A DNA stretch of 64,000 bases from Burkholderiales bacterium (lineage in GTDB: Bacteria > Pseudomonadota > Gammaproteobacteria > Burkholderiales > Burkholderiaceae_D): assembly GCA_016177875.1 (NCBI GenBank), contig JACOUL010000008.1, positions 79,432 through 143,431 of the forward strand, read 5' to 3'. The translations under genes were made by a program, and so were the position numbers. Position 1 is the first letter of the stretch, and each line of letters begins with the position of its first letter. The notes under the pieces are model-generated. The model saw only the letters and a list, made by a program, of their open reading frames with translations. It was not told the DNA's origin and made no database searches. Below are positions 8,650-32,578 of this stretch, one piece after another.

Positions 8650-8659
8650 GGCGCTCCCC

Positions 8660-9841
8660 TTACTTCGCCAACGCGACTTTGGCCGCGGGAGCGGGGGCAG
8701 GCGCGGGTGTAGAAGCGGCCACCTGGATCGGCGCGCCGGGGAAGAAGATCCGCGCCATGCCGTCGACGATCACTTCATCGCCCGCTGCCAGGCCCTGCGT
8801 GACGATCCAGCCCTCGGCCGACTGCTCGCCGACTTGCACCGGCTTAGGATTGGCTTTGCCGTTCGCTGCTACATAGACGAACTTGCCTTGCGGTCCTTCC
8901 AGCACGGCACGCGCAGGCACGCGCAAGGCTTGCGGGCGGACTGCGCCGAGCAGGCGCACGCGCACGAACTGGCCCGGACGCATGACGCCATCCGGATTCG
9001 GAACTTCAGCTTCGGCCTCGATGGTGCCGGTGGTGCGCGAGACGCGCGTGTCGGAGAACAAGAGCTTGCCTTTGCGCGGATAGACGCTGCCGTCGGCAAG
9101 CTTGACTTCTACTTCGAAGGCTTCGCGCTTAGGCAATTGCAGACGGCCCGCGGCCACCTCGCTGCGCCAGCGCATCTGGTCGGTGTCGGCGATACCGAAG
9201 CGGATCTTGATCGGATCGGTTTGTGTGACGGTAGTGAGCAGCACCTGCGGCCCGGACACCAATGTGCCCTCTGAGACTTGCGAGCGGCCCGCCATGCCGG
9301 CGATCGGCGATTCGACGCGCGTGTAGCCGAAATCCAGCGCAGCTTGCGCGCGCACTGCCTTCGCGCGTTGCAGGTCGGCGCGCGTCACCGCTTCCGCGGA
9401 CACCGCCTCGTCGTAGTCGCGCTGGCTGGTGGCCTGGGCTTCCCACAAGGGCTTCAAACGCGCAAGAGTACGCGCGGCTTGCGCATGGCGCGCCTCGGCG
9501 GCGGCCACCTCGGCGTCGGCGCGATGCAGTGTCGCGCGCAGCGGTTCAGGGTCGATGCTGTAGAGAGACTGTCCGTGCTTAACCGGCCCGCCTTCCGCGA
9601 AATTGCGCTTCAATAAAATGCCAGACACACGCGCACGCACTTCCACGTCGCGCGAGCCGGCCGTCTGGCCGACGTATTCATAAATTGCGGGCACGTCGGC
9701 AGCGGCGACCTTTTGCACGGCCACTTGCGCCGGCGGCATCCCCCCCGCGCCGGGCGAGGAACCATTGGCAGGGCTGCATGCAGCCAATACCGCCGCGATG
9801 GCCGGCGGCGTCAGAAGAAAAGCGAGGCGTTGTGCGTACAT
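8660..9841 (-). CDS. RND efflux periplasmic adaptor (membrane fusion protein, AcrA/MexA family)
   Basis: Lipoprotein-type signal (LAAC), coiled-coil hairpin and beta-barrel segments. Start chosen at MYAQRLAFLL, preceded by GGAAGAGGA. Confidence 0.85.
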   Translation of the reverse strand: MYAQRLAFLLTPPAIAAVLAACSPANGSSPGAGGMPPAQVAVQKVAAADVPAIYEYVGQTAGSRDVEVRARVSGILLKRNFAEGGPVKHGQSLYSIDPEPLRATLHRADAEVAAAEARHAQAARTLARLKPLWEAQATSQRDYDEAVSAEAVTRADLQRAKAVRAQAALDFGYTRVESPIAGMAGRSQVSEGTLVSGPQVLLTTVTQTDPIKIRFGIADTDQMRWRSEVAAGRLQLPKREAFEVEVKLADGSVYPRKGKLLFSDTRVSRTTGTIEAEAEVPNPDGVMRPGQFVRVRLLGAVRPQALRVPARAVLEGPQGKFVYVAANGKANPKPVQVGEQSAEGWIVTQGLAAGDEVIVDGMARIFFPGAPIQVAASTPAPAPAPAAKVALAK

Positions 9842-13431: not shown

Positions 13432-13506
13432 GGGCGGTTAGCTCAGCGGTAGAGCACTGCCTTCACACGGCAGGGGTCACTGGTTCGAACCCAGTATCGC
13501 CCACCA
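13432..13506 (+). tRNA. tRNA-Val (anticodon CAC)
   Basis: Manual cloverleaf: acceptor stem GGGCGGT/ATCGCCC; D-arm GCTC..GAGC; anticodon stem CTGCC/GGCAG with loop TTCACAC; T-arm ACTGG-TTCGAAC-CCAGT; discriminator A; encoded CCA. Confidence 0.85.
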
Positions 13507-13514
13507 AATAAATC

Positions 13515-13893: not shown

Positions 13894-14256
13894 ATGTCCG
13901 AACAGACCAAAGTGCAGCCGAGCTTTCGAGTTCACTACGAGAAGCTCGATTCGCCTGTCCGATTAATGCAGGAATTGCGAAGTGATGTCAAATTTGATGA
14001 CGACGCCTTAAACAACTTCGTTTGGATGATTTGGCCAAAATTTGAATGCGAAATAGATTCGCCGATTGAAGAAGGCATTGAGGCCGCGCCAGTCGGAACT
14101 GCAGTGATGCTGATTCTTAATCAGAACCCAGACTACAGAGCCATGCTACGAACAAGATTAAAAATAGGCGCAACTGGTTATTTTGTCGGCGGCTCAATGA
14201 AAATCGCGAAATTTGAAATAACAGAATTGCTTGGGGACGAAGCAAAGGCAAAGTGA
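13894..14256 (+). CDS. Hypothetical protein (island)
   Basis: 120-aa ORF in the low-GC island. Overlaps the next ORF by ATGA. Confidence 0.5.
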   Translation: MSEQTKVQPSFRVHYEKLDSPVRLMQELRSDVKFDDDALNNFVWMIWPKFECEIDSPIEEGIEAAPVGTAVMLILNQNPDYRAMLRTRLKIGATGYFVGGSMKIAKFEITELLGDEAKAK

Positions 14257-14723
14257 TGAGAGTAGCTGTTGAAAACATATTGAAGGAGATGTTGTCTCCT
14301 CATGGCTTCAGCCTGAATGTGTCCAAGGAAGCCAGGGAATATGTTCGAGAAAGAGCAGGACTTCTGGAAATTGTCGGAACGCGCAAGAGTCGTAAAGTCT
14401 CCGGACAGACGGCGGTATATTTTTCAGTGGAGGGAGGAAATCTCGCCGAACCGCGGACTTATGAGATTTCCCACGTCGCTCCGTTCAAGAATACATGGTG
14501 GTGGTCAAAGGGTTCATCCGAAGTTGAATGGGCCGGGCTTAGGCAACAACTTAGCTCCGTAGTGCTGCCGTATCTGGTTTCGCACGAGTCCGAATTCGAC
14601 GAAGCGCAGGCCCGTGAAGACGTTCATCAAGGTTTGTCTTTCCTTAACGCGAGCAACCCTTCATTTGAAAAAGTTGAGAATGCATATTGGCGTAAGCGCG
14701 GCAGCATTATTGATATGCAGTAA
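14253..14723 (+). CDS. Hypothetical protein (island)
   Basis: 156-aa ORF, translationally coupled to the upstream ORF. No recognisable motifs. Confidence 0.5.
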   Translation: MMRVAVENILKEMLSPHGFSLNVSKEAREYVRERAGLLEIVGTRKSRKVSGQTAVYFSVEGGNLAEPRTYEISHVAPFKNTWWWSKGSSEVEWAGLRQQLSSVVLPYLVSHESEFDEAQAREDVHQGLSFLNASNPSFEKVENAYWRKRGSIIDMQ

Positions 14724-14907
14724 ACCATACTTGACCTGGTAACCTCTGTCCGCTTTCATCGCGCATTGAAACTAGCCGAGCTTCCGAGATCAGCGAATTT
14801 CGTTCGGTAAGGCAATTATGTTATAAATTCCTCGTGGCGGCGTGCCGCAGCGATGTTAGCTACTAAAATGGCGAACACGTCACTACGCTCGCAAGCCTTC
14901 GACGTGA

Positions 14908-15663
14908 TTGAACCAGCACGTTCGGCAAATAAGAAATTTGAATTACATGAATACGACTTGGTACGAAGACGCTATGCAGTCAAGAGAGGTCGCCTTAATT
15001 GCGCGTTTTGGCCCGTACTCTCCTGAAGACAAAGTCTTTAAGCCACAAAATCAAGCGCTGGAAACAGCAATTCCAGGATTTGCCTTTCTTCGCTTTCCAC
15101 CTTCCGAAGGGCGGCCTTTTTGGCTTTATATTACGCACGGATTATCTCAACCATCCGAACCTGAGGAAAGCGAAAAACGTGATCAAGAACGTCTTTCAGG
15201 TTTTGGCATCGAGTTTGCGCTAGCTACTAGAGTTGAAGAAGCATGGCCATTTACGATGTTAGAGGCTCTGACCTCATATGCACTTCAAGGTATAAAGCCA
15301 GTGCTTCCATGGGATCGCGTTCCCTCAAGTGACCTAATGGAGAACGCGCCAGGAGGCCACCTGCTTGCACTTCAGGCGCCCGGCTATGACACCCAGATAA
15401 TCACAGCCACAGGAAAATTTCATATTGTTCACCTTGTAGGTGTGACCTCTGCGGAGGTGACGAAAGCCAAACTGCGGCCCGGCGTAGAAGGGAGCAAAGC
15501 TCTAGAGTGCGTCCTCCATCGACTAAATGTGGGCTGTGTCACTGACAGGAAACGAGAATGCTTGACTGATTCCATGGAATTTGAGGCGGCATGGGTAGCT
15601 TGCAACGAACAGCCTGCGCTCATAAATGACGAAAAAAAGAAACCATTTTGGAAAATCTGGTGA
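14908..15663 (+). CDS. SUFU-like (Suppressor-of-fused family) protein, candidate polymorphic-toxin immunity protein
   Basis: PFWLYITHGLS, GFGIEFALAT and AWPFTMLEALTSYAL align with the conserved SUFU N-domain blocks (HWHYISFGLS / GFGFELTFRL / PTWPAELMQGLARY). The true start may be MNTTWYEDA at ~14947. Confidence 0.55.
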   Translation: MNQHVRQIRNLNYMNTTWYEDAMQSREVALIARFGPYSPEDKVFKPQNQALETAIPGFAFLRFPPSEGRPFWLYITHGLSQPSEPEESEKRDQERLSGFGIEFALATRVEEAWPFTMLEALTSYALQGIKPVLPWDRVPSSDLMENAPGGHLLALQAPGYDTQIITATGKFHIVHLVGVTSAEVTKAKLRPGVEGSKALECVLHRLNVGCVTDRKRECLTDSMEFEAAWVACNEQPALINDEKKKPFWKIW

Positions 15664-15677
15664 CGCTGTGACGGAGC

Positions 15678-16409
15678 ATGAAATTGATTAGTTGTTCATG
15701 GAGGACTGGCCCAGAATTGAACGCGAAAACTCTAATTTCACTAATCCTTTGTTGGTGCATCCCCGCAGCGAACGCTTTGGCGGATGAGTTTGGCGAAGTT
15801 CAGCAATTGGCGCGAGCCTTCTTTATACGCGCAGGCACCGTAGAAGGGGACATTCAGGGCGTATATCTCAATTCACTTTCGGGCGGTTTGCCAAACAGCA
15901 AAAACGTGGAACAGGTAGCAGACGTCGCATTCCGCGTACGCGGACAAGGCACGCGCTACGTGCAGCTCTTCCAAATAGCAGGCAAATGGCAAGCGCTACG
16001 CATGCTGCCAGCTAACCAGCTGGCAGCGGCTAATCCCCAATTGATTGAGGAGTATAGACACGAGTATTGGCGCGAGACGGCACGCATGGAGCAGCGCATT
16101 GCCGCAGACTTACAGACGAGGCTGATCGCCGAGAAGAAGATCGATGATGTCAAATTCGCTCGTCCGCGCTGCTTCGTCGACTTGAAACACAACAAAGCGC
16201 TCTGCGACATCTTTTACCAGACGTGGTTGAAGCCCGAGCCGCAGTGCACCAATGCGGCTCGGCTGTTCGCACGCCATAACGGACAGTGGAGTGAAATTTC
16301 TGGCAAATATCATTCGGGGAAGCGTATCAATCCGAACAACGGCGAGGTTTTCACCATGATCTCAGAGCGGGAGAGTGCCGAATTTTGTCAAGCAAAAGGG
16401 GCACCGTGA
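15678..16409 (+). CDS. Hypothetical secreted protein (island)
   Basis: 243 aa. Hydrophobic N-terminal segment ending ...PAANALA (signal-peptide-like). Confidence 0.45.
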   Translation: MKLISCSWRTGPELNAKTLISLILCWCIPAANALADEFGEVQQLARAFFIRAGTVEGDIQGVYLNSLSGGLPNSKNVEQVADVAFRVRGQGTRYVQLFQIAGKWQALRMLPANQLAAANPQLIEEYRHEYWRETARMEQRIAADLQTRLIAEKKIDDVKFARPRCFVDLKHNKALCDIFYQTWLKPEPQCTNAARLFARHNGQWSEISGKYHSGKRINPNNGEVFTMISERESAEFCQAKGAP

Positions 16410-16936
16410 ATAAATTTTTTGTACTCCTACTGGGGTTATTCGTTTTCTGTTCGGCCGGAGCACAATCTGCCATTTCCTCGGCGAGGAGAGAGCTTTCTCC
16501 CATGATTCACTTGGAAGTAAAACGCCTATCCTCTCAAGGCGATGCATTAACAAAAAAAGGGAGCTATGCTGAAGCTATAGAGACATACTGGAAGGCATGG
16601 GACTTATTGCCTGAGCCAAAACAAGAATGGGATGCAGGTTTATGGCTTTTGGCAGCAATTGGCGACGCGAACTTCTTGAATCGAGATTATGTTGCATGTC
16701 GAGACAATCTCTCAGTAGCTATGCATTTCAGCGGTGCCATTGGTAATCCCTTTTTACACCTTCGGCTGGGACAATGCCAGTACGAACTCGGCAACATGAA
16801 GCGCGCAGCGGATGAACTCGCGAGAGCCTACCTCCTCGAAGGGAAAAAGATCTTTAAGAACGATGATCCAAAATACTTGACATTTATTAAGTCGAAGCTG
16901 AAGCCACCGCCAGGTGGATGGCCAGAAGGATGGTGA
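16406..16936 (+). CDS. Hypothetical secreted protein with TPR-like helical repeats (island)
   Basis: GTG start preceded by AAGGGG. Signal peptide MNKFFVLLLGLFVFCSAGAQS. Helical repeat content (YAEAIETYWKAW...). Confidence 0.45.
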   Translation: MNKFFVLLLGLFVFCSAGAQSAISSARRELSPMIHLEVKRLSSQGDALTKKGSYAEAIETYWKAWDLLPEPKQEWDAGLWLLAAIGDANFLNRDYVACRDNLSVAMHFSGAIGNPFLHLRLGQCQYELGNMKRAADELARAYLLEGKKIFKNDDPKYLTFIKSKLKPPPGGWPEGW

Positions 16937-17441
16937 TAAATCAAAACTTCGAACGCCCGCTTCCCGAACGTCCGACCGATTAAAATGGGTCGAACTCGGA
17001 AGTTCGCAATCTGACACATCCTGTCGGGTCAAGTCACAGCTTATACAATTGATATTGTCGACGTAGAGTTTCTCGGCGACTCGCGGTTTGCATTTTTTTA
17101 CGCCTCTGTGTGGCACCGCTCTCTTGATCGTAGCGGTCCGATTTCCTGCCCAGATGATGTGACGCGAGCTGCGTCCCAGTCGCTGGGGATTGAAGCTGTA
17201 GATCCCGTTCCGTGTACTTCACTTTTCTATGTTGGCCCGCCAAGCGATGGCGTACTGATTCCTCAGTATGCGGCACTCGAATCTGTGGCCCTCAGTCACT
17301 TCGGGAAGATAACGAAGCCGATGGATGTGTGGGGGCAAATACGCCCTGAATTTCGATATATGTTTAAGATGCCGACATAATATCGTTGCTTTCGCCAGCA
17401 AACATGGCGGCAACCTAATAAGCTTAAACTAAGGGGGGCAC

Positions 17442-18125
17442 ATGCCACCGTCAATCTGCGTTACCAAGGATAAATTACTAGAGTATGTCGTTCTTGAAGA
17501 AGACGAGGATACCGCTGTCTTACTCAAAGCCTCAAGCTTCCTATACATTGGTGCCGCCGAAAAAGAACATATTACGTATCACTACTGGAGCTACCCCACG
17601 TCTTGCGGTGTCGCATGGGTCTCGTTTTCGACCGATCTTACTATGAGAACGGAGAGTGAAGTTCCGTCTCACATTCAGTGCGCAACTCGCTCTCGCGACG
17701 AACATCCCATAAAGCAGACTGCGCCTCGCCATAAAATTCCTGTCGACCGCACACCAATAGCGAAGCCAGTTTTGATTCCCTATATGCTGGCTCCGGTCTG
17801 TGATTATTACCCGGTTTGGAACGAGAATATTCCGTTCGAAAACGCGGCCAATGCGTTCGAGGCCAAGCCAGTAACGGCGAACGTGGGGTACGTAGAATTA
17901 TCTTTCTGCGTTAAATTGTCCAGCGGACGGTTTGCACAATTGACTGCCCCAGCCCATCAGTCAAGTTCAGTATCGATTTCGCTGGAAATGTTTGAAGACG
18001 CAAGAAGTCGGGAGGACGAGAACTGCATAGGTTTTGTGCACGTTCAAGACATTAAAGAAATATTGGCGGTATTAGGGCGTGAGTACGTTGCTCCAACGGC
18101 TCGATATCCTTATGAATGGCGATAG
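17442..18125 (+). CDS. Hypothetical protein (island)
   Basis: 227-aa ORF with GGGGG RBS. Low GC. Confidence 0.45.
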   Translation: MPPSICVTKDKLLEYVVLEEDEDTAVLLKASSFLYIGAAEKEHITYHYWSYPTSCGVAWVSFSTDLTMRTESEVPSHIQCATRSRDEHPIKQTAPRHKIPVDRTPIAKPVLIPYMLAPVCDYYPVWNENIPFENAANAFEAKPVTANVGYVELSFCVKLSSGRFAQLTAPAHQSSSVSISLEMFEDARSREDENCIGFVHVQDIKEILAVLGREYVAPTARYPYEWR

Positions 18126-18200
18126 CCAGTTGACAAAAGCCTTGAGCGCGAATCCTACCAGATTCGTATTGAGCGAAATTGCAAAGGCGGAGGAGCCGAA

Positions 18201-18683
18201 ATGCTTTCGTGGATAGAACAAATGATTGGTTTGACTCCTAAGGCCAAGGAAAAGGCCAAGCAAATGGAGCAGAAGGCAAATGAGCTTGCATTGGTGTTGC
18301 CTTATGTCGTAAATCGCCAAGTTCTCGCTCTGATTCCCAAAAAAAAATGCTTCGACTGGACGAATCAGTGGAATGAACGTTCCAAAGTGGAGCGCCCTTT
18401 GGATGTGGGCCGTGATCAATGGTCTTATACCCGGTTTTATCTGGTTCACGGACAACTCAAATCGGAAGATCTGCCAGCACTTATAGCGAAACATCGAAAA
18501 TATTTCCTGAAATCTTACGTTGATGGATATGCCCCAAAATCACTGTGGCCGTGGGCGCCGACGGAAGATGAGTTTTCAGAGTGGTACGACGCTGTGCTGA
18601 TTCCAGGAAACGTTCACGATCTCGACGAGTCCTTATTAGCCAAAGAGCCGGATATTCTTAAAGCAATAACCCACCAATTTTAA
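18201..18683 (+). CDS. Hypothetical protein (island)
   Basis: 160-aa ORF. No recognisable motifs. Confidence 0.45.
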   Translation: MLSWIEQMIGLTPKAKEKAKQMEQKANELALVLPYVVNRQVLALIPKKKCFDWTNQWNERSKVERPLDVGRDQWSYTRFYLVHGQLKSEDLPALIAKHRKYFLKSYVDGYAPKSLWPWAPTEDEFSEWYDAVLIPGNVHDLDESLLAKEPDILKAITHQF

Positions 18684-18690
18684 ATAATAA

Positions 18691-19302
18691 ATGCAGAGGC
18701 TATCAATGGAGATTTCCAAGCTAATCAAAAAGATAGATGCACTGCCAAAGAGTATGTATCTTGAGTTTGACGGCAAAACTTACAAGAAGACTTATAAGCA
18801 TACGTTTTCGCCAGGGCTAAATAAAAATGATGTTGTTCAGGAATTGCTCAGGCTTTGGGTGCCTTTAGATATTTTGGAAGAAGGATGGCAGGACCTCTAC
18901 CAAATTTCAAATGGAATTAAGCTGTTCCATAGCGAAAGTGAGGATGTAGATACCGGCGAATACTTTATTCCCTCCATAGAGCTACACCCTCTAGGCAGAT
19001 TGGCGGCTGAGACGGGTTATATGCAATCTGAAGTATTCCAGGAGATTGAAGATGGGGATGATCCCCCTGTTTATTCCAAAGGCGTAGCAATAGGAGAGGC
19101 GTGTGGGACAGGTAATCGTTTTATTCTGAATAGATGGGGTGAACTGTCAGGAAATATCATTTATGCGGACCATGATCCCGACATAAACGAATGGCATACA
19201 AAGGCGTTTTCGAGTTCGCTTGTCGATTTTCTCGAGCAATTATCGTCAGATCCGTTTTCCACTCTTAGTCGCATTAGTGGTGCAGATAAAGTTTGGTTTT
19301 GA
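18691..19302 (+). CDS. SMI1/KNR4 (SUKH superfamily)-like protein, candidate immunity protein
   Basis: VAIGEACGTGNRFILNRWGELSGNIIYADHD matches the SUKH signature (I..d.gGn...d....G.V...dHe). C-terminal SLVDFLEQL is also SUKH-typical. Confidence 0.55.
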   Translation: MQRLSMEISKLIKKIDALPKSMYLEFDGKTYKKTYKHTFSPGLNKNDVVQELLRLWVPLDILEEGWQDLYQISNGIKLFHSESEDVDTGEYFIPSIELHPLGRLAAETGYMQSEVFQEIEDGDDPPVYSKGVAIGEACGTGNRFILNRWGELSGNIIYADHDPDINEWHTKAFSSSLVDFLEQLSSDPFSTLSRISGADKVWF

Positions 19303-19368
19303 TGCTAATTCGAATGGGAAAAATGAAACGCCTGATTTGGCTCTGAATGAATTGAAAAAGGGTGAGGT

Positions 19369-21009
19369 ATGGGAGCGTGGGGAACCGGCATTCTGGATAA
19401 CGATACTGTTAGAGACGTAAGAGATCAGTACAGAGATCGGATAATTGCCGGTGACTCTGATGAAGGCGCAACAAACGAAATATTTCAGGAGTGGGGAAGC
19501 ATTTTCAATGAGGATGCGGACGGTGACGTATTGCTTGGGCTAACCTACGCCAAACTTGAAACCGGACGGCTAGATGCCGCCACAAAGGAAAAGGCAATTT
19601 CTTTTCTGGAAGGCGGCGGCGACCTCGATCTTTGGGACGAAAAGGCTAAAAAACGTAGAGCTGCGGTTCTTCAGAAATTTCTAGCAAAACTTCAAGCGGT
19701 CGATATTAAAAGCCAAAAGCCCAAAAAGCTTCGCGCACCATTTCTCGCGGAGTGTGATTGGCAAGAAGGGGAATACTTGGCATATCGCTTGTCTTCAGGC
19801 GAATATCTGGTTCTGGTGGTTATCTTGTTGGTCAATGATGTGTCTATGGGCACATTTCCATCCGTTGGCATAATCGGTAGAACTTTCTCCTCTATAGATT
19901 CTTTAGATGACATTGACTTGCTTCCATTGGCGCCTTGCTCACTTAGTCCAAGTGGAGTCGAGCGGTTTCACATCTATGAGGAGCGACATGATCGAATACC
20001 GCATGACCGGGTCGTTCGGCTAAACAAAAAAAGAAATATTACCGCCGATATGAAGTCGGGGACGCATGGTGGGACATTTTGGGTCTCTTTGGAAAAGTAC
20101 ATTCACCAATACAGATTTCCCGATACCCCTGGGGTAGTGAGCCTTGGTGATCGCTTTGCTCCGGATACCTTTGGAGGCGTTATCGGTGTCTTGCGCAACA
20201 CTCAGTTTTCTGTTGAAGCCAGAACTCAACATCCGCTTGCAGGCTTTCAACAAAAATCCGTTGGAATTAGTGATGGCAAAACACCGGGAGCGATATATCA
20301 AACAATGCTCGCGAATATGGCGCTTGGCCATTGGGACAAAAGTCTTAGTTTAATTAGTGAACTCAAGCAACTTCTGCCGAAGGAAAACATGCAGTTTGAT
20401 TTGGCGATACGCGAGGCACAAGCTAATTTGCAAAAAGGTCTTCCTTTAGATGAAATAGTCAAGAGTTTAGAAGCCTGGCAGAAAAATGAAAATGTCATCG
20501 GTTTAGGTATGTATGAGGTGCGGCTAAGTGCTCTCTATTTCATAAATGGTGATTTTCAAAAAGGTTTGGCCCTTCATAGGGCTGCAATCGACTTAGGAAA
20601 GCATGACAGCATGAAGTGGCTTGATCTCGCTTTAGCTGAAGCTCAGTATGGGGATCTCGCAGCGACTGAAGATTCTTTAAGCCATGTAGAGATCAATCAG
20701 GTTGCAAATTTCGCGTTGCCATTTCTGAGTTGGGCAAGGGGTATTGTTGCATTTGGAAAGGGACAACACGCAGTCGCTTCAATGTACTTCCTTAATGCCA
20801 TAGGTCCGATATTGGCGCGTCGAACAAATCCCACAATTTGGAGTTTATTAGCGCTAATTTCTGGTTGGAGTGCACTCACATTAAAGGCGCAAGGACTAGG
20901 CGACGAAGCTAAAGCACTTACCCAAGCTGTATGGCCGGTATTAAAAGTACAGGGTTCGAAGAAATTGTTGGCATCGTTGAGCGAGGGCCAATTGACCGGA
21001 ATTATGTAG
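19369..21009 (+). CDS. Large hypothetical protein with DUF4259-like N-terminus and helical C-terminal region
   Basis: N-terminus MGAWGTGILDNDTVRDV is characteristic of DUF4259 proteins. The remaining ~430 aa are helical-repeat-like. Confidence 0.5.
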   Translation: MGAWGTGILDNDTVRDVRDQYRDRIIAGDSDEGATNEIFQEWGSIFNEDADGDVLLGLTYAKLETGRLDAATKEKAISFLEGGGDLDLWDEKAKKRRAAVLQKFLAKLQAVDIKSQKPKKLRAPFLAECDWQEGEYLAYRLSSGEYLVLVVILLVNDVSMGTFPSVGIIGRTFSSIDSLDDIDLLPLAPCSLSPSGVERFHIYEERHDRIPHDRVVRLNKKRNITADMKSGTHGGTFWVSLEKYIHQYRFPDTPGVVSLGDRFAPDTFGGVIGVLRNTQFSVEARTQHPLAGFQQKSVGISDGKTPGAIYQTMLANMALGHWDKSLSLISELKQLLPKENMQFDLAIREAQANLQKGLPLDEIVKSLEAWQKNENVIGLGMYEVRLSALYFINGDFQKGLALHRAAIDLGKHDSMKWLDLALAEAQYGDLAATEDSLSHVEINQVANFALPFLSWARGIVAFGKGQHAVASMYFLNAIGPILARRTNPTIWSLLALISGWSALTLKAQGLGDEAKALTQAVWPVLKVQGSKKLLASLSEGQLTGIM

Positions 21010-21103: not shown

Positions 21104-21628
21104 CTAACTATTTTCCGCAAGCACCGGCTTCCATCCGTTTGCAGTAGCGTGCGCGTAGCAATGCCTCAATGCATGCGCATCATGCAACGCATGATGCTTC
21201 GGCCGCGCAGGGCCGAAATAGCCATCCATCACTTTCTGTAATGCCGGCTGCCAATCGTCGCCCATCGACCATGTAGTGAACTGGATTGGCCAAGCATCCA
21301 AGTTCGCCGGCCACGGCGTCAACAATCGCTTTAGCTGGCCGAAGAAATCGGCGTCAGGGCAGTCGGTAACGATTACGGCCATTTCGGGAAGTTCGTTAAT
21401 CCATGCCGTCAGCTTTTCTCGTGTGACGACCTCGGACTGGACGTATTCGCCTCGCCATAGATGCCGTACCACGTTGAAATGCACCCACTCGTTGCATTGA
21501 ACCGTCCAGTGTTCTTCGGGCAGCTCCGCGTAGAATTCGCGGCCGTCTTCGTTAACCAGGGCAATCGAAATCAAATCAGGCTTGGCCTGATTGATGCCTG
21601 TGAATTCCGTGTCCAGGAACAGTAGCAA
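21104..21628 (-). CDS. DEDDh 3'-5' exonuclease, Rv2179c-like family (paralog 2)
   Basis: LLLFLDTEFTGI...DLISIALVNEDGREFYAE...HHALHDAHAL: Exo I (D-x-E) and Exo III (H-x4-D) motifs with the Rv2179c-like N-terminal block. Start proposed at TTG 6 nt after the upstream ORF's stop. The ATG-extended ORF at 21772 would overlap the upstream ORF by 139 nt. Confidence 0.6.
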   Translation of the reverse strand: MLLFLDTEFTGINQAKPDLISIALVNEDGREFYAELPEEHWTVQCNEWVHFNVVRHLWRGEYVQSEVVTREKLTAWINELPEMAVIVTDCPDADFFGQLKRLLTPWPANLDAWPIQFTTWSMGDDWQPALQKVMDGYFGPARPKHHALHDAHALRHCYAHATANGWKPVLAENS

Positions 21629-21633
21629 TTGAA

Positions 21634-21912
21634 TTATCCGACCGCCGGTGGTGCTTCGGTGATCTCGTACATTTGCAGAATTTCGTGGCGGGCCAAGTGG
21701 CGCAAATTCGCTTCGTTCGCCAGGATACTCTTCTCCTGGTCGACTTGCGTTTCCAAGAGATCGAGATAGCAATCGGCGTCGATCATCGCCTTGACGCGAT
21801 CCGGCCAGCCAAGCATCCAGCGGTTTGCGATGGAAACTGCCATAGCGCCCATCGATTCGATTCTAGCCGCCACTTCGGTGGGGTAATTTGCTCGGTAGGT
21901 CAAATCTTCCAT
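21634..21912 (-). CDS. Small hypothetical protein upstream of exonuclease paralog 2 (possible partner/antitoxin)
   Basis: 92-aa ORF. Its stop lies 6 nt before the exonuclease TTG. No recognisable motif; not VbhA-like. Confidence 0.4.
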   Translation of the reverse strand: MEDLTYRANYPTEVAARIESMGAMAVSIANRWMLGWPDRVKAMIDADCYLDLLETQVDQEKSILANEANLRHLARHEILQMYEITEAPPAVG

Positions 21913-21952: not shown

Positions 21953-22411
21953 TTAAGACGCGGGCGTAAAGCCGAACTTGTTGGCTAAACTATCGTAGAG
22001 CGCATGATGTTGGCGCCCGCTCGCACAGTTCTCAATGTACCAAGTGAACTTGGCTTGATCAATTTGGTTGCGGATATCGCGCGTGGCTAACCATGCCGGC
22101 AGATCGCCAATCAAGTCGCGCAACAATGTGATATCCCTTGCCAAGTCATAGCAAAGAACTGGCGTTTCATCGGCAAACTGAAGCAGCCAGCCATTTACTT
22201 TTTGCGCCAACTCGCTTTTCGTAAATACGGAGTCGGCCTTTTGTCCGAGCTGAGGCAATACCGTGCTCTTGACGAAGGCGCTGCATCGATCAACCGAGTA
22301 ATCGTTTCGCTCGCCGTAAAACTGGCGCCCGTCTTCGCTCACCAGTCCGATGGAGATGAGTTCGGAAGGCGAGTCGAAGTCGGTGAATTCGGTATCGATG
22401 AAAATGTTCAT
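21953..22411 (-). CDS. DEDDh 3'-5' exonuclease, Rv2179c-like family (paralog 1)
   Basis: MNIFIDTEFTDFDSPSELISIGLVSEDGRQFYGE...HHALYDSLAN parallels the Rv2179c N-terminus (..FYDTEF...ELISIGVV.EDGREYYA) and has the Exo III H-x4-D motif. Its ATG overlaps the upstream TGA (ATGA). Confidence 0.7.
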   Translation of the reverse strand: MNIFIDTEFTDFDSPSELISIGLVSEDGRQFYGERNDYSVDRCSAFVKSTVLPQLGQKADSVFTKSELAQKVNGWLLQFADETPVLCYDLARDITLLRDLIGDLPAWLATRDIRNQIDQAKFTWYIENCASGRQHHALYDSLANKFGFTPAS

Positions 22412-22590
22412 TTCAATCCAAAAACTTGATCTGTCACTTCGCGAACCTCTGCGATTGTGAGTTCGCCTTTGATATACCGATCCAGTAATGTACGAAAATC
22501 CGGCTCCGGCTCAAAGCCTTCGAGCGCGGCGCTCGCCAAGGTTTGCTCAACGAATTTTTTACGATCTTCTTCGGAAGTTTCCACACTCAT
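22408..22590 (-). CDS. VbhA-family antitoxin-like small protein (class I Fic antitoxin fold) without a Fic partner
   Basis: MSVETSEEDRKKFVEQTLASAALEGFEPEPDFRTLLDRYIKGELTIAEV carries the (S/T)xxxE(G/N) inhibitory motif (SAALEG) and the EP.P / GE-T/I VbhA-family pattern. AGGTGA RBS. The ORF-track start is an upstream TTG. Confidence 0.65.
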   Translation of the reverse strand: MSVETSEEDRKKFVEQTLASAALEGFEPEPDFRTLLDRYIKGELTIAEVREVTDQVFGLK

Positions 22591-22646
22591 ATTTTCACCT
22601 ATGCGCAGTGTTATAGGCGCCAATGTCAGTTTATGCCGGCTGCCGG

Positions 22647-25600
22647 TTATGCCGCAAGCTTGCCTGATTTGATCGGAGGATGATTGATCCGCTCAAATAG
22701 CGTTTCAAGCTTATCCGAAATCTCCTGCCTGGTCTCCTTGATTTCCGCCAGCAGGCCAGCTACTCGCTGTTCCTCCTTGACGAGTAAGGCAAGCGCTTTT
22801 TCTGCCAATTCCGGTGTTTCTGGAATCAGGGGCTTTGCCTGTTCTATCTCACCAAGCGTTGTCCCTTCCGGGAAGGTCTGGAACTGCCGGCGCAGCCATT
22901 CAATTGCCAGTTCCGGCTCAGAGGGAGCGATTTGCGCAACTTCCTGCTTGCCCGAGAATAGCCGATGACCACTGCGTACCAGCTTATGCACTTTCGCACT
23001 CGGCATAGAAATATGCAGCCCCCATTTGACACGAGCACGATCAATCGAAAGCCCTGGAATGTTCGCCGGGATATTCGCTGGCGCTTGCGCCATGCTGTCA
23101 TCAATTCTCCAGCCTGCTTTGCGCAGTGGCAGAAGCATCTTTTGAATGCCACTGGCCCGTTGCGCAAGTTGCGCAATAGCCGCCATGACTGCCGGATCGT
23201 CTGGAATGGGAATCGAAATCTGCCGAAGATCGTCTGGCTGCAAGCGTCCGGCGATGGCGCTGCGGTTGACGCCATCCAGCAAGGCGCGCATCTGCTGGCT
23301 ATTCAGGAACGCCAGCACATACCAAGGATCGATCTTGGCCGAATCTGTTTCCAGCATCTCGCGAATCGGTGCGCGATGATCGAGTTGGTTGCGAATCGAC
23401 TTGTTATCTACGCCTGCGAGATGACACCAGCGCATCAACAAAAACACGGAATGATTGCACTTTAAGAATCCGCCATCGTCCCAAGTGCCATCGTCATAGG
23501 CAAAGCCGCCGAATTCCGCGACCATCAGCTTGGGGCGGTCGTACAATTCGGGGAAGGTCGGACGCCTGACTTGTGCCGGTACTCGCGTTCCAGACCCGTA
23601 TTCCAGGTAGCGTACATTGATGATGCCGAAATAATCGACATCCTTGCTTCCAGCAAATGGCGCTGGATGCGCTGAATCCATTTGATCGGCTATCAGATCA
23701 TCAATCGTAAAGGCTCCTTTATTGGTTTTTTCATTCGCGTTGAGAACCATGCCTACGGAAATGTAAAAAATGTCCTCTAATGGGATCGCCTTCACGTTAT
23801 GCGCCAATGTCAGCGTCGGCAATTCCTGCCTAAATACGCTAGTCTTGTAATGCGATTGCCGCAGGTTCTGGCTGCGAGCGTGCGACAGGCTGCCCCACTT
23901 GGGCGCGGTCTCGTGCCAGAAGCGTTCCGTATGCGTGTGGCCAGTCGGCGGTCGGTTCGTGGCAACAGTAATGGTGTTTTGCACCATCGCGTCTTCAAAC
24001 AGTTTCACGCCGGGGAAGAAATGCACTTCATCGACTGTGGCGCGATTGACGAATAATTCACGCAAGCCATCGCAATAGGGCACGGTCTCGATGGCATTGC
24101 TGGTGATGATTGCCATTTTTCCCGCCTTGCCATGTTCGGATTCCTGCTTGAGCAGGTTGAGACTGGCCGCAACGAACGGCACGAACAAATCCCACTTGAG
24201 AACCATTGTGCTGCGCACGGCTTCGCTCGGATATTCCCGCTTGATGCGGTCACGATAGGAAAGCATCGCGTCGCTTTCGTTCGCCTTGACATAAGGCGGA
24301 TTGCCGACGACGAAATCGAATTTGTCCCTCCATTGCCCGATACCCGCCTTGATTTGATCTTCCTTCGGTAAATCTTCATCGGGGAATGGCAATGTCCCGG
24401 CCTGGCTTGCCAGCGTATCGGCGCTGAACGACAGGCTATCGGAGTTATAGATATGGAAGCGTTCGATCGTCGCTGGCTGATCGCCCTTGTGCGCAATGCT
24501 GAACAGGTCAATCACCTGAATCAGCAAGTTGGTTTCCGCCAATGAGCATGCGAAGGGGTTCAGATCGACGCCATGCAGACAATCCCTGATTTCATTCAGA
24601 ACGGTTTGCACTTCCTCGGCTGGCACGTGGCTATGCCCGCGCCCACGCCAGTATTCCCGATAGGCGCTGACCAGGCGGGTTGCCGCTTCGACGAGGAAGC
24701 CGCCAGAGCCGCACGACAGGTCAATCAGCTTCTTGCCGATGATGTCCGTTCCCTTATAGCCGATACGATCTAGCATAAAGGAGACAACATCAGGCGACGT
24801 GAAGTACATCCCGCTTTCATGCTTATGCTTGGCTTCGACGTACTGGTTATAGACGGTGCCAATGATGTCTCGGTTGATGTTGCTGAGATCGAAACCGGCA
24901 AGCTTATGTAATACCCGTACTACCGCATTCCGGTCAGGAATATACCAATCCAGGACGGTGCGCTCTGCGAAGAAATGCGCGTAGATGTGTTGTGCGGAGG
25001 TATACGCCAATTCAAGCAGGAAGTCGGCGCTGCGGCCCATTGCATGCTCCAGGTAGTGCGATTCCACTTGCCTGAACCAAAGCGACACGCCGCCGTTGGT
25101 GAACATCCGGTTGACCAGCCCCTTGTCTTCCATGATGCGCACCAGGAGGATACGGATGATGACCAGGTACGCCGTCTGCGCCAGGAATTCACGCCGCAAC
25201 AATTTGGCGTCGTCGGACTGAAACACGAGAGAAGCAGTCTTCTCTTTCCAAGTCTCGATATGGTGATAGACCTTGATACTCGCCTTGTGTTGCGCCTCCA
25301 GCTTGGTGAGATAACGGTAGCGCTTTTCCGTATAAGCACGAATCCGACTAATTAGAACGTAAATAGGGTCGCGGTCTGTGCCTTTCCCGGATTTGATCGC
25401 ATGCAGGGCATAGAGACGCCGCTCAATCTGCTTTAACTCGCCCATCAAGACATCGCCGTGCATGATTTTGCGCAGCAAGCCTTCATCGTATTCCTTGGTC
25501 TCTTTATCGGCAGCCACCATCAATTGCATGGCGGTTTGAATGAGATTGTCTTCCTGTTCTTGGAGCGTCGTGTTCTCAGTTGGTATCTTCTTCGAAGCAT

Positions 25601-26282
25601 CCTTGTACGCATTGAAATCCGTCTCGACTGCGGCAAGCTGTGCGTCGGCATCATCCTCGAATTCCGAAATCAGTTCCTTGATGGCTTCGGTAAGCTGATC
25701 GGCGTTGTCATGGGTGACGGGGACGATGCGCAGGCGGCAGTATGTGTTTGTCCACGTCTTACCGTTTGGCTTGTGAGGCTTGTTATTCCCAGTCTCATTT
25801 TGAAGCGTCAAATCGTCGATGAGATTGCGTAGGCTTGCAAAGCTGCCGCGCTGGAAGCGGCGCCACAGCGCAGAGAATCGCGCAATGAAGCCACATGCAT
25901 CCAGGGCGTCGATCTTGGATTTTCCGCTGGCGAGTATATCGCCGCCCGTCCATGCATGAACCGCCTGCGCCAAGGGAATTTCGATTGCGGGCGTGTGCAG
26001 ACCGCCTTCCATTTGGTCATAAACTAGAATCGCATGGCCGTTGACGAGCATGCCGCGTGAGGCGCCGAATTGCGTCATGTAGCCTTGCAGTTGCGGACGG
26101 TGATGACGAAGGTCTAGGGCGGCCGTATTTTTATCTTCGACGATAAAGCATGCCTGGCGCGGGTATTCATCTATCTTGATGACGAAATCGGGGCGCTGCC
26201 GACCGGCTTGGGCATTGTATTCGTATTCTTGCTTGCTGTAGCCGAGCGCTTCAATCAGTAAAGCCGTGATGCGCATGTCCAC
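22647..26282 (-). CDS. Type IIG restriction-modification fusion enzyme (MmeI-like: N-terminal PD-ExK endonuclease + gamma-class N6-adenine methyltransferase + target-recognition domain)
   Basis: N-terminus RPDFVIKIDEYPRQACFIVEDK (D...ExK). Methyltransferase motif I DLSCGSGGFLVEA. Motif IV VVGNPPYV. ~400-aa C-terminal region. No helicase motifs and no brx/pgl neighbours. Start is GTG 26282 or ATG 26276; an in-frame TGA lies just upstream. Confidence 0.75.
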   Translation of the reverse strand: MDMRITALLIEALGYSKQEYEYNAQAGRQRPDFVIKIDEYPRQACFIVEDKNTAALDLRHHRPQLQGYMTQFGASRGMLVNGHAILVYDQMEGGLHTPAIEIPLAQAVHAWTGGDILASGKSKIDALDACGFIARFSALWRRFQRGSFASLRNLIDDLTLQNETGNNKPHKPNGKTWTNTYCRLRIVPVTHDNADQLTEAIKELISEFEDDADAQLAAVETDFNAYKDASKKIPTENTTLQEQEDNLIQTAMQLMVAADKETKEYDEGLLRKIMHGDVLMGELKQIERRLYALHAIKSGKGTDRDPIYVLISRIRAYTEKRYRYLTKLEAQHKASIKVYHHIETWKEKTASLVFQSDDAKLLRREFLAQTAYLVIIRILLVRIMEDKGLVNRMFTNGGVSLWFRQVESHYLEHAMGRSADFLLELAYTSAQHIYAHFFAERTVLDWYIPDRNAVVRVLHKLAGFDLSNINRDIIGTVYNQYVEAKHKHESGMYFTSPDVVSFMLDRIGYKGTDIIGKKLIDLSCGSGGFLVEAATRLVSAYREYWRGRGHSHVPAEEVQTVLNEIRDCLHGVDLNPFACSLAETNLLIQVIDLFSIAHKGDQPATIERFHIYNSDSLSFSADTLASQAGTLPFPDEDLPKEDQIKAGIGQWRDKFDFVVGNPPYVKANESDAMLSYRDRIKREYPSEAVRSTMVLKWDLFVPFVAASLNLLKQESEHGKAGKMAIITSNAIETVPYCDGLRELFVNRATVDEVHFFPGVKLFEDAMVQNTITVATNRPPTGHTHTERFWHETAPKWGSLSHARSQNLRQSHYKTSVFRQELPTLTLAHNVKAIPLEDIFYISVGMVLNANEKTNKGAFTIDDLIADQMDSAHPAPFAGSKDVDYFGIINVRYLEYGSGTRVPAQVRRPTFPELYDRPKLMVAEFGGFAYDDGTWDDGGFLKCNHSVFLLMRWCHLAGVDNKSIRNQLDHRAPIREMLETDSAKIDPWYVLAFLNSQQMRALLDGVNRSAIAGRLQPDDLRQISIPIPDDPAVMAAIAQLAQRASGIQKMLLPLRKAGWRIDDSMAQAPANIPANIPGLSIDRARVKWGLHISMPSAKVHKLVRSGHRLFSGKQEVAQIAPSEPELAIEWLRRQFQTFPEGTTLGEIEQAKPLIPETPELAEKALALLVKEEQRVAGLLAEIKETRQEISDKLETLFERINHPPIKSGKLAA

Positions 26283-26623: not shown

Positions 26624-27217
26624 TTATCGAGAAGGCCCAATATCTTTAGATTGATTCAGTGACAGGACTTTGCCATCACCATCCCCGTTATAAGTAATTT
26701 CAACACTGGCGCCAACCGCCGGAATGCAATCCAACTTGCCTACATGATGCGCGACTAATTTTCCTCTTCCCGTATCTTGTAAGACGCGATCAGGCGTTGT
26801 CGCACTGACGATCTTCCCAATATAGGTACGGCCTGGTTGTGCCTCTGGAATGGCCTCATCCTGCATTGCCTGTTCGCTTTGCAAAGCGGGCAGTTGCTTC
26901 AATAAGTCAGGCAGCGCTTTTTGCACTGTGTCCCATACCACATCAAGATTGATATCGAAATATCCATGAGCGATACGGTTGCGCATGCCGCGCATGCTAC
27001 GCCAGGGTACTTCTGCGTGTTGATTGGCAAATTCGGCATACTCTCCCATCACCTTGGTCGCGGCCTCGCCAATGATGATAAGACTCATGACCACGGCTTG
27101 TTGCGTCCGCTTGTCGGCCATGAATTCGCTTTTACTCAGGCCGGCAACGAAGCTGCACGCATCCGATGCGGCTTGCTGCATGTGGTCGATATAGTCGGGA
27201 AGGCGGTTCTCGCTCAT
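26624..27217 (-). CDS. hepT: HepT-like (DUF86) RNase toxin with ~70-aa C-terminal extension
   Basis: R-x4-H-x-Y motif (RNRIAHGYF) inside a HepT-like N-terminal ~120 aa. The extra C-terminal segment (TYIGKIVSATTPDRVLQDTGRGKLVAHH...) is of unknown family. Overlaps mntA by 4 nt. Confidence 0.7.
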   Translation of the reverse strand: MSENRLPDYIDHMQQAASDACSFVAGLSKSEFMADKRTQQAVVMSLIIIGEAATKVMGEYAEFANQHAEVPWRSMRGMRNRIAHGYFDINLDVVWDTVQKALPDLLKQLPALQSEQAMQDEAIPEAQPGRTYIGKIVSATTPDRVLQDTGRGKLVAHHVGKLDCIPAVGASVEITYNGDGDGKVLSLNQSKDIGPSR

Positions 27218-27504
27218 ACCGGCTTTGCTTCTGCAAGCACCTTGGCCCGAAATTTCGCTGGCAAGTCTGCCGGCGTTAAAAGATCAACGTGGACGCCAAG
27301 CAAATCTTCGAGTTCGGCTTGCAAACCACCCAAATCGAACAAGGTTGCGCCAGGAAGGGCATCTACGAGAATATCCAGATCGCTATTGTCGCCATCTGTG
27401 CCGTGCAATGCTGATCCAAAGACACGCGGATTGACGGCCCGATAGCGTGCAGTAACGGCTCGAATGGCCTCACGCTTTTTTTCCAGAATGATGGATGGTC
27501 TCAT
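27214..27504 (-). CDS. mntA: MntA-type nucleotidyltransferase antitoxin
   Basis: GSALHGTDGDNSDLDILV: minimal nucleotidyltransferase G-S-x9-13-D-x-D motif. Classic MntA-HepT pairing. Confidence 0.75.
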   Translation of the reverse strand: MRPSIILEKKREAIRAVTARYRAVNPRVFGSALHGTDGDNSDLDILVDALPGATLFDLGGLQAELEDLLGVHVDLLTPADLPAKFRAKVLAEAKPV

Positions 27505-30333: not shown

Positions 30334-30378
30334 TTCACACGGCAGGGGTCACTGGTTCGATCCCAGTATCGCCCACCA
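30334..30378 (+). repeat. 45-bp direct repeat of the tRNA-Val 3' end (island right-hand att site)
   Basis: TTCACACGGCAGGGGTCACTGGTTCGATCCCAGTATCGCCCACCA equals tRNA positions 13462-13506 with a single mismatch (A->T in the T-loop). Confidence 0.85.
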
Positions 30379-30383
30379 CATTC

Positions 30384-31423: not shown

Positions 31424-32578
31424 ATGTTATCCATACCGTGGGTTTACTTTCTAAAGGACGGCGAGCAGCTTCTCATCGAAACGCCGACGCGCCGCCGCGT
31501 GTTGAATGGTCCTTGCGTCGCCACGGTGGGCCCGCTTGAGAAAGCCACCAAGCGCGAAGGCATCTGCATCGGCCCGACTTTCTACGCAAGAGTGTGCGAC
31601 AAAGGCAGCGGCAAGTTGCGCAATGAAATCGGCCCGAAGATGCTGTTTCTCGGCCCGAACGATGTGCTGGAGCGGATGATGCAGCTGATTCCGTTGAAGA
31701 GTAATGAATACGTAAAAATCGTCGACCGCGCCACCGGCGTGATTCGCGTCGTACGCGGGGAGTCGAGCGTCATCCTGGAACCGACCGAGTCTTTGCTGGG
31801 TGAAGTGGCGCAGGGCATTTCGGTCGATGAACATACCGCTGTCGTGGTGCGCAATATCCGCGACGGCGAGTTGAAGCTCATCACGGAACATCAGTTGTTC
31901 GTGCCGGCTGCCGATCAGGAAGTGGTGGAGATACGCAAGTGCGTTCTCCTGGACGACCATGAAGCAGTCGTCATACGCGATCGCGATGGGTGTCATTCCG
32001 TGCATACCGTTAGCGATGCGGGTCACTCGTTCTTCCTTGATCCCTATTCGTCGCTGGTGCAGTTCCGCTGGTCGACCGGCCTCCATAAAGATACGCGCAG
32101 CTTGGAATTCACCCACTTGGATCAGCGTCCGAAATTCATGCAGCATTCCGTCACGGTGCGCACGCAAGACGATGTGGAGGTGGAGCTGGGTATCACGGTG
32201 TTTTGGCAGGTCGAGAATATCGAAGCCATGCTTCATACCACGGAAGACGCGCCGGCGGATTTGTGCTGGCGTGCGCGCAGCGCCATCATGCAAGCGGCCT
32301 CGAATCGGACGCTGGAAGAGTTTCGCAGTTCTTCCAACAGCATCGTGGCGGATGCCGTGTTCAGCGACGGCAAGTTTTATGCTGAGCGCGGTCTCCGCTT
32401 GCATGCCATCGAAGTGCGTTCGGTACAGTGTCGTGGAGAGAAATCGCCGCTGGAAGATCTTTCGCCTTTGGATACGTTCCACGGCGAAGATGTGCCGCTT
32501 GAGCTCTCCAACGGCTGGCCGCAGTTGTGTTTCGCGCCGGATCAGGTTAATTTAAGCATTGAACCTCGGGCTGCATAA
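31424..32578 (+). CDS. Major-vault-protein (MVP) repeat / SPFH (band-7)-like protein
   Basis: Four ~45-aa repeats of pattern V-x-[DN]-x-x-[DS]-G-x-x-[RK]-x-[VI]-x-G-x-x-x-x-[FIL]-L-x-P-x-E (e.g. YVKIVDRATGVIRVVRGESSVILEPTESLL). These are followed by an SPFH-like shoulder segment (ITVFWQVENIEAM...RSAIMQAASNRTLEEF). Confidence 0.5.
   Translation: MLSIPWVYFLKDGEQLLIETPTRRRVLNGPCVATVGPLEKATKREGICIGPTFYARVCDKGSGKLRNEIGPKMLFLGPNDVLERMMQLIPLKSNEYVKIVDRATGVIRVVRGESSVILEPTESLLGEVAQGISVDEHTAVVVRNIRDGELKLITEHQLFVPAADQEVVEIRKCVLLDDHEAVVIRDRDGCHSVHTVSDAGHSFFLDPYSSLVQFRWSTGLHKDTRSLEFTHLDQRPKFMQHSVTVRTQDDVEVELGITVFWQVENIEAMLHTTEDAPADLCWRARSAIMQAASNRTLEEFRSSSNSIVADAVFSDGKFYAERGLRLHAIEVRSVQCRGEKSPLEDLSPLDTFHGEDVPLELSNGWPQLCFAPDQVNLSIEPRAA

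Follow-up and report, generated by a model that had tools for sequence, protein, structure and literature searches.

A small acidic protein gene and an RNase AS-like exonuclease gene on a tRNA-Val island: poison and antidote, or accessory genes of a mobile element?

Does a short open reading frame (ORF) placed directly before a nuclease gene encode its antidote? The question is raised by two adjoining genes at positions 21,104 to 21,912 of a 64,000-nucleotide (nt) stretch of contig JACOUL010000008.1 from a Burkholderiales bacterium, the whole of which is called the window here. The upstream gene, orf92, encodes a protein of 92 residues, and the downstream gene, exo2, encodes a DEDDh exonuclease. 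They are preceded on the same strand by a related exonuclease gene, exo1, with a small ORF of its own. A first-pass annotation had described two tandem cassettes resembling toxin/antitoxin or toxin/immunity arrays, in which each small protein would be the cognate modulator of its nuclease. We see that orf92 and exo2 are both real genes and that their pairing is not conserved in either direction. On balance, we lean towards reading them as co-transcribed accessory genes of a mobile element, and not as a poison/antidote pair.

Two real genes and how often they are paired

The reading frame of exo2 is open upstream of TTG 21628 as far as position 21772, which would give a product of 222 residues. 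This had been put forward as an alternative ATG start, but the codon there is a second TTG. Homologues retrieved with the 222-residue query (120 among the matches listed) are mostly 167–175 residues long, cover only its C-terminal 76–78%, and have N-termini that align at M-x-x-F-L-D-T-E-F. The NCBI annotation of the metagenome-assembled genome (MAG; Burkholderiales bacterium HYS18) also calls a 174-residue protein, HYS18_02110, with orf92 as HYS18_02115. Based on these homologue lengths, N-termini and the NCBI call, the start is placed at TTG 21628, which has a GGA 8 nt upstream, and the start at 21772 is rejected. The translation opens with MLLFLDTEFTG and has DLISIALVNEDGREFYAE and HHALHDA further on, so all of the motifs originally quoted for a second Rv2179c-like exonuclease, directly downstream on the same strand, are present. 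The earlier distance of 6 nt from the orf92 stop to the TTG is right if counted base to base, and the spacer itself is 5 nt. This layout would be compatible with termination–reinitiation coupling.

Homologues of orf92 form 77 clusters at 40–70% identity, nearly all about 90–96 residues long, and an exhaustive profile search gave 128 representatives at 50% identity. The family occurs in 73 species-level genome loci, nearly all of them from Beta- or Gammaproteobacteria. When orf92 is compared with 40 homologues, differences are most frequent at third codon positions, then first, then second (2231, 1505 and 1113, respectively). This is a coding-type substitution pattern, from which we infer that orf92 is a translated gene. 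The concern that it might be a non-coding overlap, or be absent from relatives, can therefore be set aside.

Gene calls in the related loci (given L numbers here) are mechanical ORFs, and the loci are phylogenetically related to one another; all counts below are to be read accordingly. An initial clustering of orf92 neighbours left out ORFs that overlap orf92, and these were kept in a later re-examination. An exonuclease lies directly downstream of orf92 in about 16–17 of 71 non-redundant species-level loci (about 23–27%) and in all three distinct metagenomic contexts looked up; starts and stops often overlap. It was the only family recurring beside orf92 in the initial clustering, and is the commonest neighbour.

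The reverse association is far rarer. Of 80 metagenomic loci collected with the exo2 family as seed, only one contains orf92, as does 1 of 9 close exo2 orthologues with enough upstream sequence. Genes like exo1 were found on 51 plasmids, and orf92 on two, with neither copy adjoining an exonuclease. Orthologues of exo2 at 61–68% identity, all without orf92, stand solo by mraZ, on a Tn7-like transposon where the exonuclease follows a metallophosphoesterase, or as exonuclease–exonuclease pairs in ParA-bearing elements. Tandem exonucleases with no small ORF between them are common, with four in one Polaromonas locus. Sorted by upstream neighbour, 103 exonuclease genes divide into 31 that follow a larger ORF, 26 that follow another small ORF, 15 that follow a further exonuclease, 11 that follow orf92 and 11 with no neighbour, the last nine being N-terminally extended ORFs; the figure for orf92 is inflated, as many loci had been picked via orf92. 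Close relatives of orf92 also differ in their partner, as of two that share 67% identity with it, one lies in a giant methylase gene (L007) and one before an exonuclease (L008).

Because the exonuclease is often solo and orf92 swaps partners between close relatives, a toxin/antitoxin or toxin/immunity relationship is unsupported. What stands from the proposal of cognate modulators is the tight packing and the fact that the exonuclease is the most frequent linkage; the cognate cassette does not stand, as the pairing is not conserved. There may be a looser functional, physical or regulatory link between orf92 and the exonuclease.

Mobile-element context and nesting in giant genes

In the window, orf92 and exo2 are the last of five genes on the minus strand, in the order Eco57I-type methylase, orphan VbhA, exo1, orf92 and exo2. 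The intergenic distances along this string are 23, −4, 40 and 5 nt, so the five genes look like one transcription unit. A scan for consensus promoters and terminators found no convincing site within the string, and fewer than in shuffled sequence, which is weak evidence. Direct repeats derived from tRNA-Val, together with a drop in GC content from 0.57–0.60 outside to 0.44–0.54 between the repeats, place the string inside an integrated island of roughly 16.9 kb. Neither an integrase nor a relaxase was seen among the island ORFs scanned (part of all ORFs). The island also holds an IS1595 transposase and an XRE regulator. The window contains no polyvalent protein, and nearby are only a KfrB-domain protein and the large methylase.

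In other genomes, a MobA/TraI-type relaxase lies upstream of orf92 on the same strand in about 12 loci, several of these relaxases having an LPD7 domain. Most of these loci continue in the order relaxase, orf92, exonuclease(s), and in three loci the orf92 start overlaps the relaxase stop. The large neighbours enriched nearest to orf92 are LPD7 (7), Metallophos (7), KfrB (5) and Relaxase (4), and plasmid copies adjoin genes for LPD1, cytosine-methylase and N6-methylase proteins. Exonucleases on plasmids, pPNAP06 and Xanthomonas MobQ plasmids among them, typically lie downstream of TraI, MobA or MobQ relaxases, with an HAD gene, a 138-residue hypothetical protein or nothing as the upstream neighbour. 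RNase AS-like exonucleases are also found in phages.

The second typical setting is inside a much larger gene. A tblastn search placed an orf92 match at 31545–31817 of Pseudomonas phage 8P (MT152150; L176 6001–6273), within the gene of an annotated 5145-residue 'structural protein' but in another frame. The phage copy has its own ATG and stop, and the frame of the giant gene stays open across it. Exactly at 6000–6300, the third-position GC signal passes from the giant frame to that of orf92. Altogether, a giant ORF with homology to the 8P protein encloses orf92, or has it at its 5′ end, in 17 genome loci and probably in L025, and likewise on plasmid pACP4.3 and on a Cupriavidus plasmid. Upstream modules in the giants are SLT, InPase or C5-methylase, and downstream come an Eco57I-type N6-methylase and an SNF2/ResIII helicase. 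They are DarB-like polyvalent proteins as Iyer et al. 2017 (PMC5512222) use the term. Two loci, L042 and L074, have giant ORFs that begin 50–170 nt upstream of orf92 and share the N-terminus MKNxxQxxLFG.

Relative to orf92, the giants are without exception in the −1 frame, and so is exo2 in the window, where orf92 is free-standing. The −1 frame is stop-free across orf92 in 20 of 20 nested loci, including those in genomes of 39–48% GC, compared to 17 of the 56 remaining loci; for the +1 frame the counts are none of 20 and one of 56. Synonymous recoding with local codon usage leads to an expectation of 0.7–5.7 stops per nested locus. Treating the loci as independent, which holds only in part, gives a joint chance of about 1e-32 for all nested frames being open. 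At least 9 of the 20 starts of nested orf92 follow a Shine-Dalgarno-like motif, compared to 14% of random positions, with starts picked crudely. From these reading-frame data, genuine dual coding of nested orf92 is probable.

The orf92 family has the gene surroundings of the polyvalent/Dar toolkit, with LPD7 relaxases, KfrB, LPD1 and large methylases as neighbours, or a place inside the giants themselves. The orf92 domain lies outside Pfam and did not surface in term searches of PMC5512222, none of which was aimed at orf92. In these searches, the DEDDh exonuclease term appears in the reference list only, not as a component of the toolkit. A further difference is that the methylase neighbouring orf92 in the window is another kind of enzyme, type IIG-like and of 1211 residues. 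No such module is described in the literature consulted on Rv2179c, on VbhA with an exonuclease and on leading-region anti-defence; a Nature 2024 paper on leading regions does not mention exonucleases. No mobile-element role for RNase AS-like exonucleases was found in the literature searched.

Several side observations concern these settings. Relaxase-proximal stretches in L013 (5887–9845, a Polaromonas MAG), L063 and L073 (both 6001–9000) and L085 (4069–6265) carry two to four DEDDh exonucleases, interleaved with a metallophosphoesterase, an HAD-like protein and small unknown ORFs, often with overlapping stops and starts. Such clusters form a set of genes for nucleotide or nucleic-acid processing that recurs on mobilisable elements. 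In L116, L117, L119, L124–L126, L129–L132, L138 and L139, the exonuclease domain is at the C-terminus of an ORF of about 370–410 codons, with about 200–250 extra N-terminal residues, representing either a domain fusion or read-through by the mechanical ORF caller. In several Nitrosospira genomes, solo orf92 copies (L053 2592–5400, L046 4608–4893, L050 835–1126) lie downstream of a tRNA-Gly/tRNA-Cys pair, at distances between a few hundred bases and about 5 kb, the L053 cluster being uvrC-pgsA-tRNA-Gly-tRNA-Cys. This suggests that solo orf92 marks the edge of integrated elements there.

The encoded proteins

The orf92 protein gave no match in Pfam, NCBIfam, PADLOC, PHROGs or PDB sequences. It has an isoelectric point (pI) of 4.6 and a net charge of −7 over its 92 residues, and the residues invariant in the family are Y10, A29-N-R-W32, G35-W-P37, Q56, L73, E77 and P88-P89. 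The structural model is a confident five-helix bundle (predicted local distance difference test, pLDDT, 88; predicted template modelling score, pTM, 0.80), and comparison of this model with known structures revealed no recognisable relative, and so none with a DNA-binding, antitoxin, chaperone or anti-restriction fold. The protein belongs to an undescribed family of small acidic helical proteins, carried on mobile elements of Beta- and Gammaproteobacteria. No fusion to an exonuclease was found among longer family members, whose extensions are unrelated to one. In one of these, P0198 (194 residues), the C-terminal extension is homologous to a separate 121-residue ORF at 6873–7238 of L013. That ORF follows the first exonuclease of the locus, has the motif R-A-L-A-x-I-G-A-G-L-L-M-R-H, and may belong to a recurrent neighbour family.

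A small helical protein beside a DEDDh exonuclease is a likeness shared with the epsilon–theta (DnaQ–HolE) pair of DNA polymerase III and with Hot of phage P1. The epsilon–theta analogy found no support in structure comparison and was discarded.

The exo2 protein has the D-x-E of motif Exo I, the D of Exo II and the H-x4-D of Exo III that define the DEDDh superfamily; D6, E8, D94, H145 and D150 are invariant in an alignment of 44 sequences that includes exo2 and exo1. Its AlphaFold 2 model (pLDDT 95.2) has an RNase H-like alpha/beta fold. A Foldseek search of the PDB with this model gave 85 matches at E ≤ 1e-3, and the best 50 are all DEDDh enzymes. The top matches are the RNase AS structures 4OKE and 6S0M (E about 1e-9, template modelling score 0.64–0.76, probability 1.00), which are also the best PDB matches by sequence, with RNase T, Orn, Cap18 and TREX next. 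In profile searches exo2 just passes RNase_T of Pfam (24.2 bits, cut-off 24) and matches NCBIfam RNase_AS at 1.6e-7 and PHROG 2259, a phage family that exo1 also matches, at 9.5e-24. It stays below both curated RNase AS thresholds, with 17.2 bits against 27 for the Rv2179c-like family PF16473 and 31.8 against 200 for NF033638. As a structural relative that fails the curated sequence thresholds, exo2 is best called an RNase AS-like DEDDh exonuclease. We predict it to be a catalytically competent, metal-dependent 3′-5′ exo(ribo)nuclease of the RNase AS clade.

By its profile scores, exo1 is the clearer RNase AS family member. It passes PF16473 (31 bits, cut-off 27), matches NCBIfam RNase_AS at 1.1e-13, although missing the equivalog cut-off, and matches the 6S0M/4OKE sequences at 3e-9. 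Pairwise alignment bears out the suggested paralogy of exo1 and exo2, which is distant (27% identity, E = 2e-12). Both share with RNase AS the D-x-E, D and H-x4-D catalytic residues and a conserved N-terminal block FxDTEF...LISIG/A...DGREFYA, but at only about 22–24% identity. RNase AS is a chromosomal housekeeping or virulence gene, whereas exo2 is borne on a mobile element and its kind often occurs in tandem copies. The poly(A) specificity and homodimeric state are known for RNase AS itself, to which exo2 is likened by sequence and model.

Competing explanations

The favoured reading, that orf92 and exo2 are co-transcribed accessory genes and not poison and antidote, starts from their place at the end of the five-gene string on a decayed, integrase-less island. 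Typically, orf92 directly follows a MOBP/MOBQ relaxase and directly precedes, or is nested in, the gene of a 'payload' nucleic-acid enzyme: a DEDDh exonuclease in about a quarter of loci, and a DarB-like polyvalent methylase-helicase in another quarter. The two genes would be portable ones that serve the element, probably in nucleic-acid processing or counter-defence at entry and establishment, and they are probably expressed together through their tight coupling. To the advantage of the element, the exonuclease would shorten RNA or single-stranded DNA from the 3′ end, and orf92 would act as a generic accessory factor made with whichever enzyme comes next.

Several observations weigh against this reading. 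The exonuclease is, after all, the single commonest neighbour of orf92, with frequent start/stop overlaps. About half of orf92 loci, for example in Nitrosospira, have neither an exonuclease nor a giant methylase, and the idea of a payload partner leaves these unexplained. No relaxase is seen in the window, which makes the local string a rearranged remnant that may have lost the function it had in an active element. The mechanical gene calling in related loci also tempers the comparison.

A more specific proposal, which we regard as tentative, is that orf92 founds a new family of small partner proteins, serving enzymes that reach a new cell with a mobile element. It would be overprinted in the +1 frame of phage-type DarB-like giants, with both frames kept by selection, and free-standing and coupled to exonucleases on mobilisable elements; its part in the window would be to bind or help exo2.

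By analogy, orf92 could also be a dedicated helper with changing partners, such as a chaperone, an adaptor or a packaging factor, for enzymes delivered together with DNA, the exonucleases via conjugation and the DarB-like proteins in virions, in the manner of VirE1 for VirE2 or of the small Dar proteins of P1. We think this rather unlikely. It would fit a small, acidic, helical protein whose gene is relaxase-adjacent and directly 5′ of, or nested in, an enzyme gene that occupies its −1 frame, and it would fit the annotation of the 8P giant as structural. DarB-like giants are virion proteins in phage JC1 as judged by proteomics, P1 DarB depends for its function on small accessories such as Ulx, and no homologues of these accessories are known in other DarB-like phages (PMC9144972, PMC12810830), so that orf92 may plausibly have such a role. 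However, translocation of the exonucleases is drawn from analogy, the loci lacking either partner do not suit a dedicated helper, and orf92 has no structural likeness to known chaperones.

We consider it improbable that exo2 is growth-inhibiting and orf92 its neutraliser, with VbhA and exo1 as a second pair. As in VbhA/VbhT (Fic) and MntA/HepT modules, an enzyme gene on a mobile island has a small acidic ORF closely coupled to it on the upstream side, and the adjacent, co-oriented genes with the small one first, 5 nt apart, have the layout of a type II toxin–antitoxin system. The layout occurs twice, with an ATGA overlap between VbhA and exo1, and with partners that do differ as first noted, since orf92 has no similarity to the 71-residue VbhA-like ORF before exo1. 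An MntA–HepT pair lies on the same island, and the exonuclease linkage of orf92 has been described above. Against this, and unlike in type II modules, the pairing is conserved in neither direction, exonucleases of the clade are solo or beside other genes in many genomes, exonuclease tandems without small ORFs are common, and close orf92 relatives lie inside giant methylase genes. No DNA-binding or known antitoxin domain or fold was recognised in orf92, and PADLOC matches exo1 and exo2 with only a generic Cas-associated DEDDh model. Polymorphic-toxin cassettes have the toxin gene first and the immunity gene after it. The order here is the reverse, Pfam reveals no trafficking domain, and exo1 and exo2 are complete stand-alone proteins with native N-termini. 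A VbhA-family gene does precede exo1, but the target class of VbhA is Fic, and no Fic partner is present in the window; at L005, VbhA lies downstream of an exonuclease and is not paired with it, few loci underlying the VbhA–exonuclease pairing frequency.

We also give little credence to the idea that orf92 is an independent anti-restriction or anti-defence inhibitor, such as a DNA mimic or enzyme blocker, that is merely co-transcribed with exo2. Its low pI, its neighbours (DNA methylases, polyvalent proteins and LPD domains) and the existence of solo copies would all suit this idea. However, orf92 matches no known anti-restriction family or fold, its net charge is modest for a DNA mimic, and in the window it belongs to the tail of a string whose first gene encodes a putative restriction-modification enzyme, in a non-mobile remnant. 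Decay of the two genes into cargo that no longer has a function here is very improbable. The missing integrase and relaxase and the IS1595 insertion might suggest it, but both ORFs are intact and full-length, exo2 with all catalytic and orf92 with all invariant residues.

In short, the tempting label of a nuclease toxin with a small antidote is removed, and is replaced by a documented tRNA-Val island whose accessory genes are of a sort typical for relaxase operons and for polyvalent-protein loci. RNase AS-like exonucleases are seen to be widespread on plasmids, integrative elements, transposons and phages, often in tandem copies and next to metallophosphoesterase and HAD genes. The nesting of orf92 in giant anti-restriction genes is the part that may surprise specialists. 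If the overlap is expressed, it would be a clean case of dual coding in mobile elements, and orf92 would be a candidate for the missing accessory factor of DarB-like systems.

Table 1 Features of the window (positions in the 64,000-nt stretch) and related loci with nested orf92.
Feature	Position or locus	Strand	Description
exo2	21104..21628	-	174-residue DEDDh 3′-5′ exonuclease, RNase AS/Rv2179c clade; TTG 21628, stop 21106-21104
Spacer TTCAA	21629..21633	-	5 nt, orf92 stop to exo2 TTG; read from sequence
orf92	21634..21912	-	ATG 21912, TAA 21636-21634; 92 residues; acidic, pI 4.6, predicted five-helix, unannotated family
exo1	21953..22411	-	152-residue Rv2179c-like DEDDh exonuclease, paralogue of exo2
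VbhA-family antitoxin-like gene	22408..22623	-	71-residue ORF from TTG 22623; NCBI 60 residues from ATG 22590
Type IIG-like N6-adenine methylase	22647..26282	-	1211 residues, Eco57I/MmeI-type; first gene of string
MntA-like nucleotidyltransferase + HepT-KfrB	26624..27504	-	MntA 27504..27214; HepT-KfrB 27217..26624
tRNA-Val(CAC)	13432-13506	+	ARAGORN
48-nt direct repeat, left copy	13462-13509	+	From 3′ half of tRNA-Val
48-nt direct repeat, right copy	30334-30381	+	96% identical; far end of island
Nested orf92 loci	L007, L018, L026, L029 (Variovorax paradoxus NBRC 15149), L030, L032, L035, L037, L042, L044		Giant ORF around orf92 match
Nested orf92 loci, rest	L045, L056, L062, L068, L069, L070, L074, L080, L081, L176 (phage 8P)		Giant ORF around orf92 match

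Neighbouring genes on the island

The VbhA-like ORF, whose stop overlaps the exo1 ATG, matches Pfam PF18495 at 1.3e-13, is named 'antitoxin VbhA family protein' by NCBI, and keeps the inhibitory motif (S/T)xxxE(G/N) as SAALEG. The Fic motif HxFx(D/E/N)GNGR is absent from every frame of the 64-kb window, so the gene is an orphan. A word-indexed protein search for its homologues returned only itself, and tblastn on plasmids gave one weak match. Xanthomonas plasmids are also reported to carry an N6-methylase with an orphan VbhA (PMC10878067). The 1211-residue methylase at the head of the string matches Pfam Eco57I (3.7e-18), N6_Mtase (7e-12) and, weakly, HSDR_N_2, and PADLOC matches it to PglX and REase_MTase_IIG. 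Its translation has an N-terminal PD-(D/E)xK-like region, PDFVI...VEDK.

Upstream of the methylase, an MntA/HepT gene pair is recognisable, the MntA assignment coming from motif and position without a family scan. The 96-residue MntA-like ORF has a GS...DxD nucleotidyltransferase motif and overlaps the start of its partner. That partner combines HepT-like (1e-27) and KfrB (1.4e-11) Pfam domains in one protein, an unusual joining of a toxin, the HepT RNase, to a C-terminal plasmid-type domain. Proteins with a KfrB domain are also found repeatedly beside orf92 elsewhere, as 5 of 119 neighbours.

On the plus strand, a run of genes at 13894–21009, with weak family matches or none, converges on exo2 and resembles an array of orphan immunity-type genes. 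It includes a SUFU-domain protein (14908–15663), a TPR protein (16385–16936), and ORFs of 160, 203 and 546 residues with no Pfam match.

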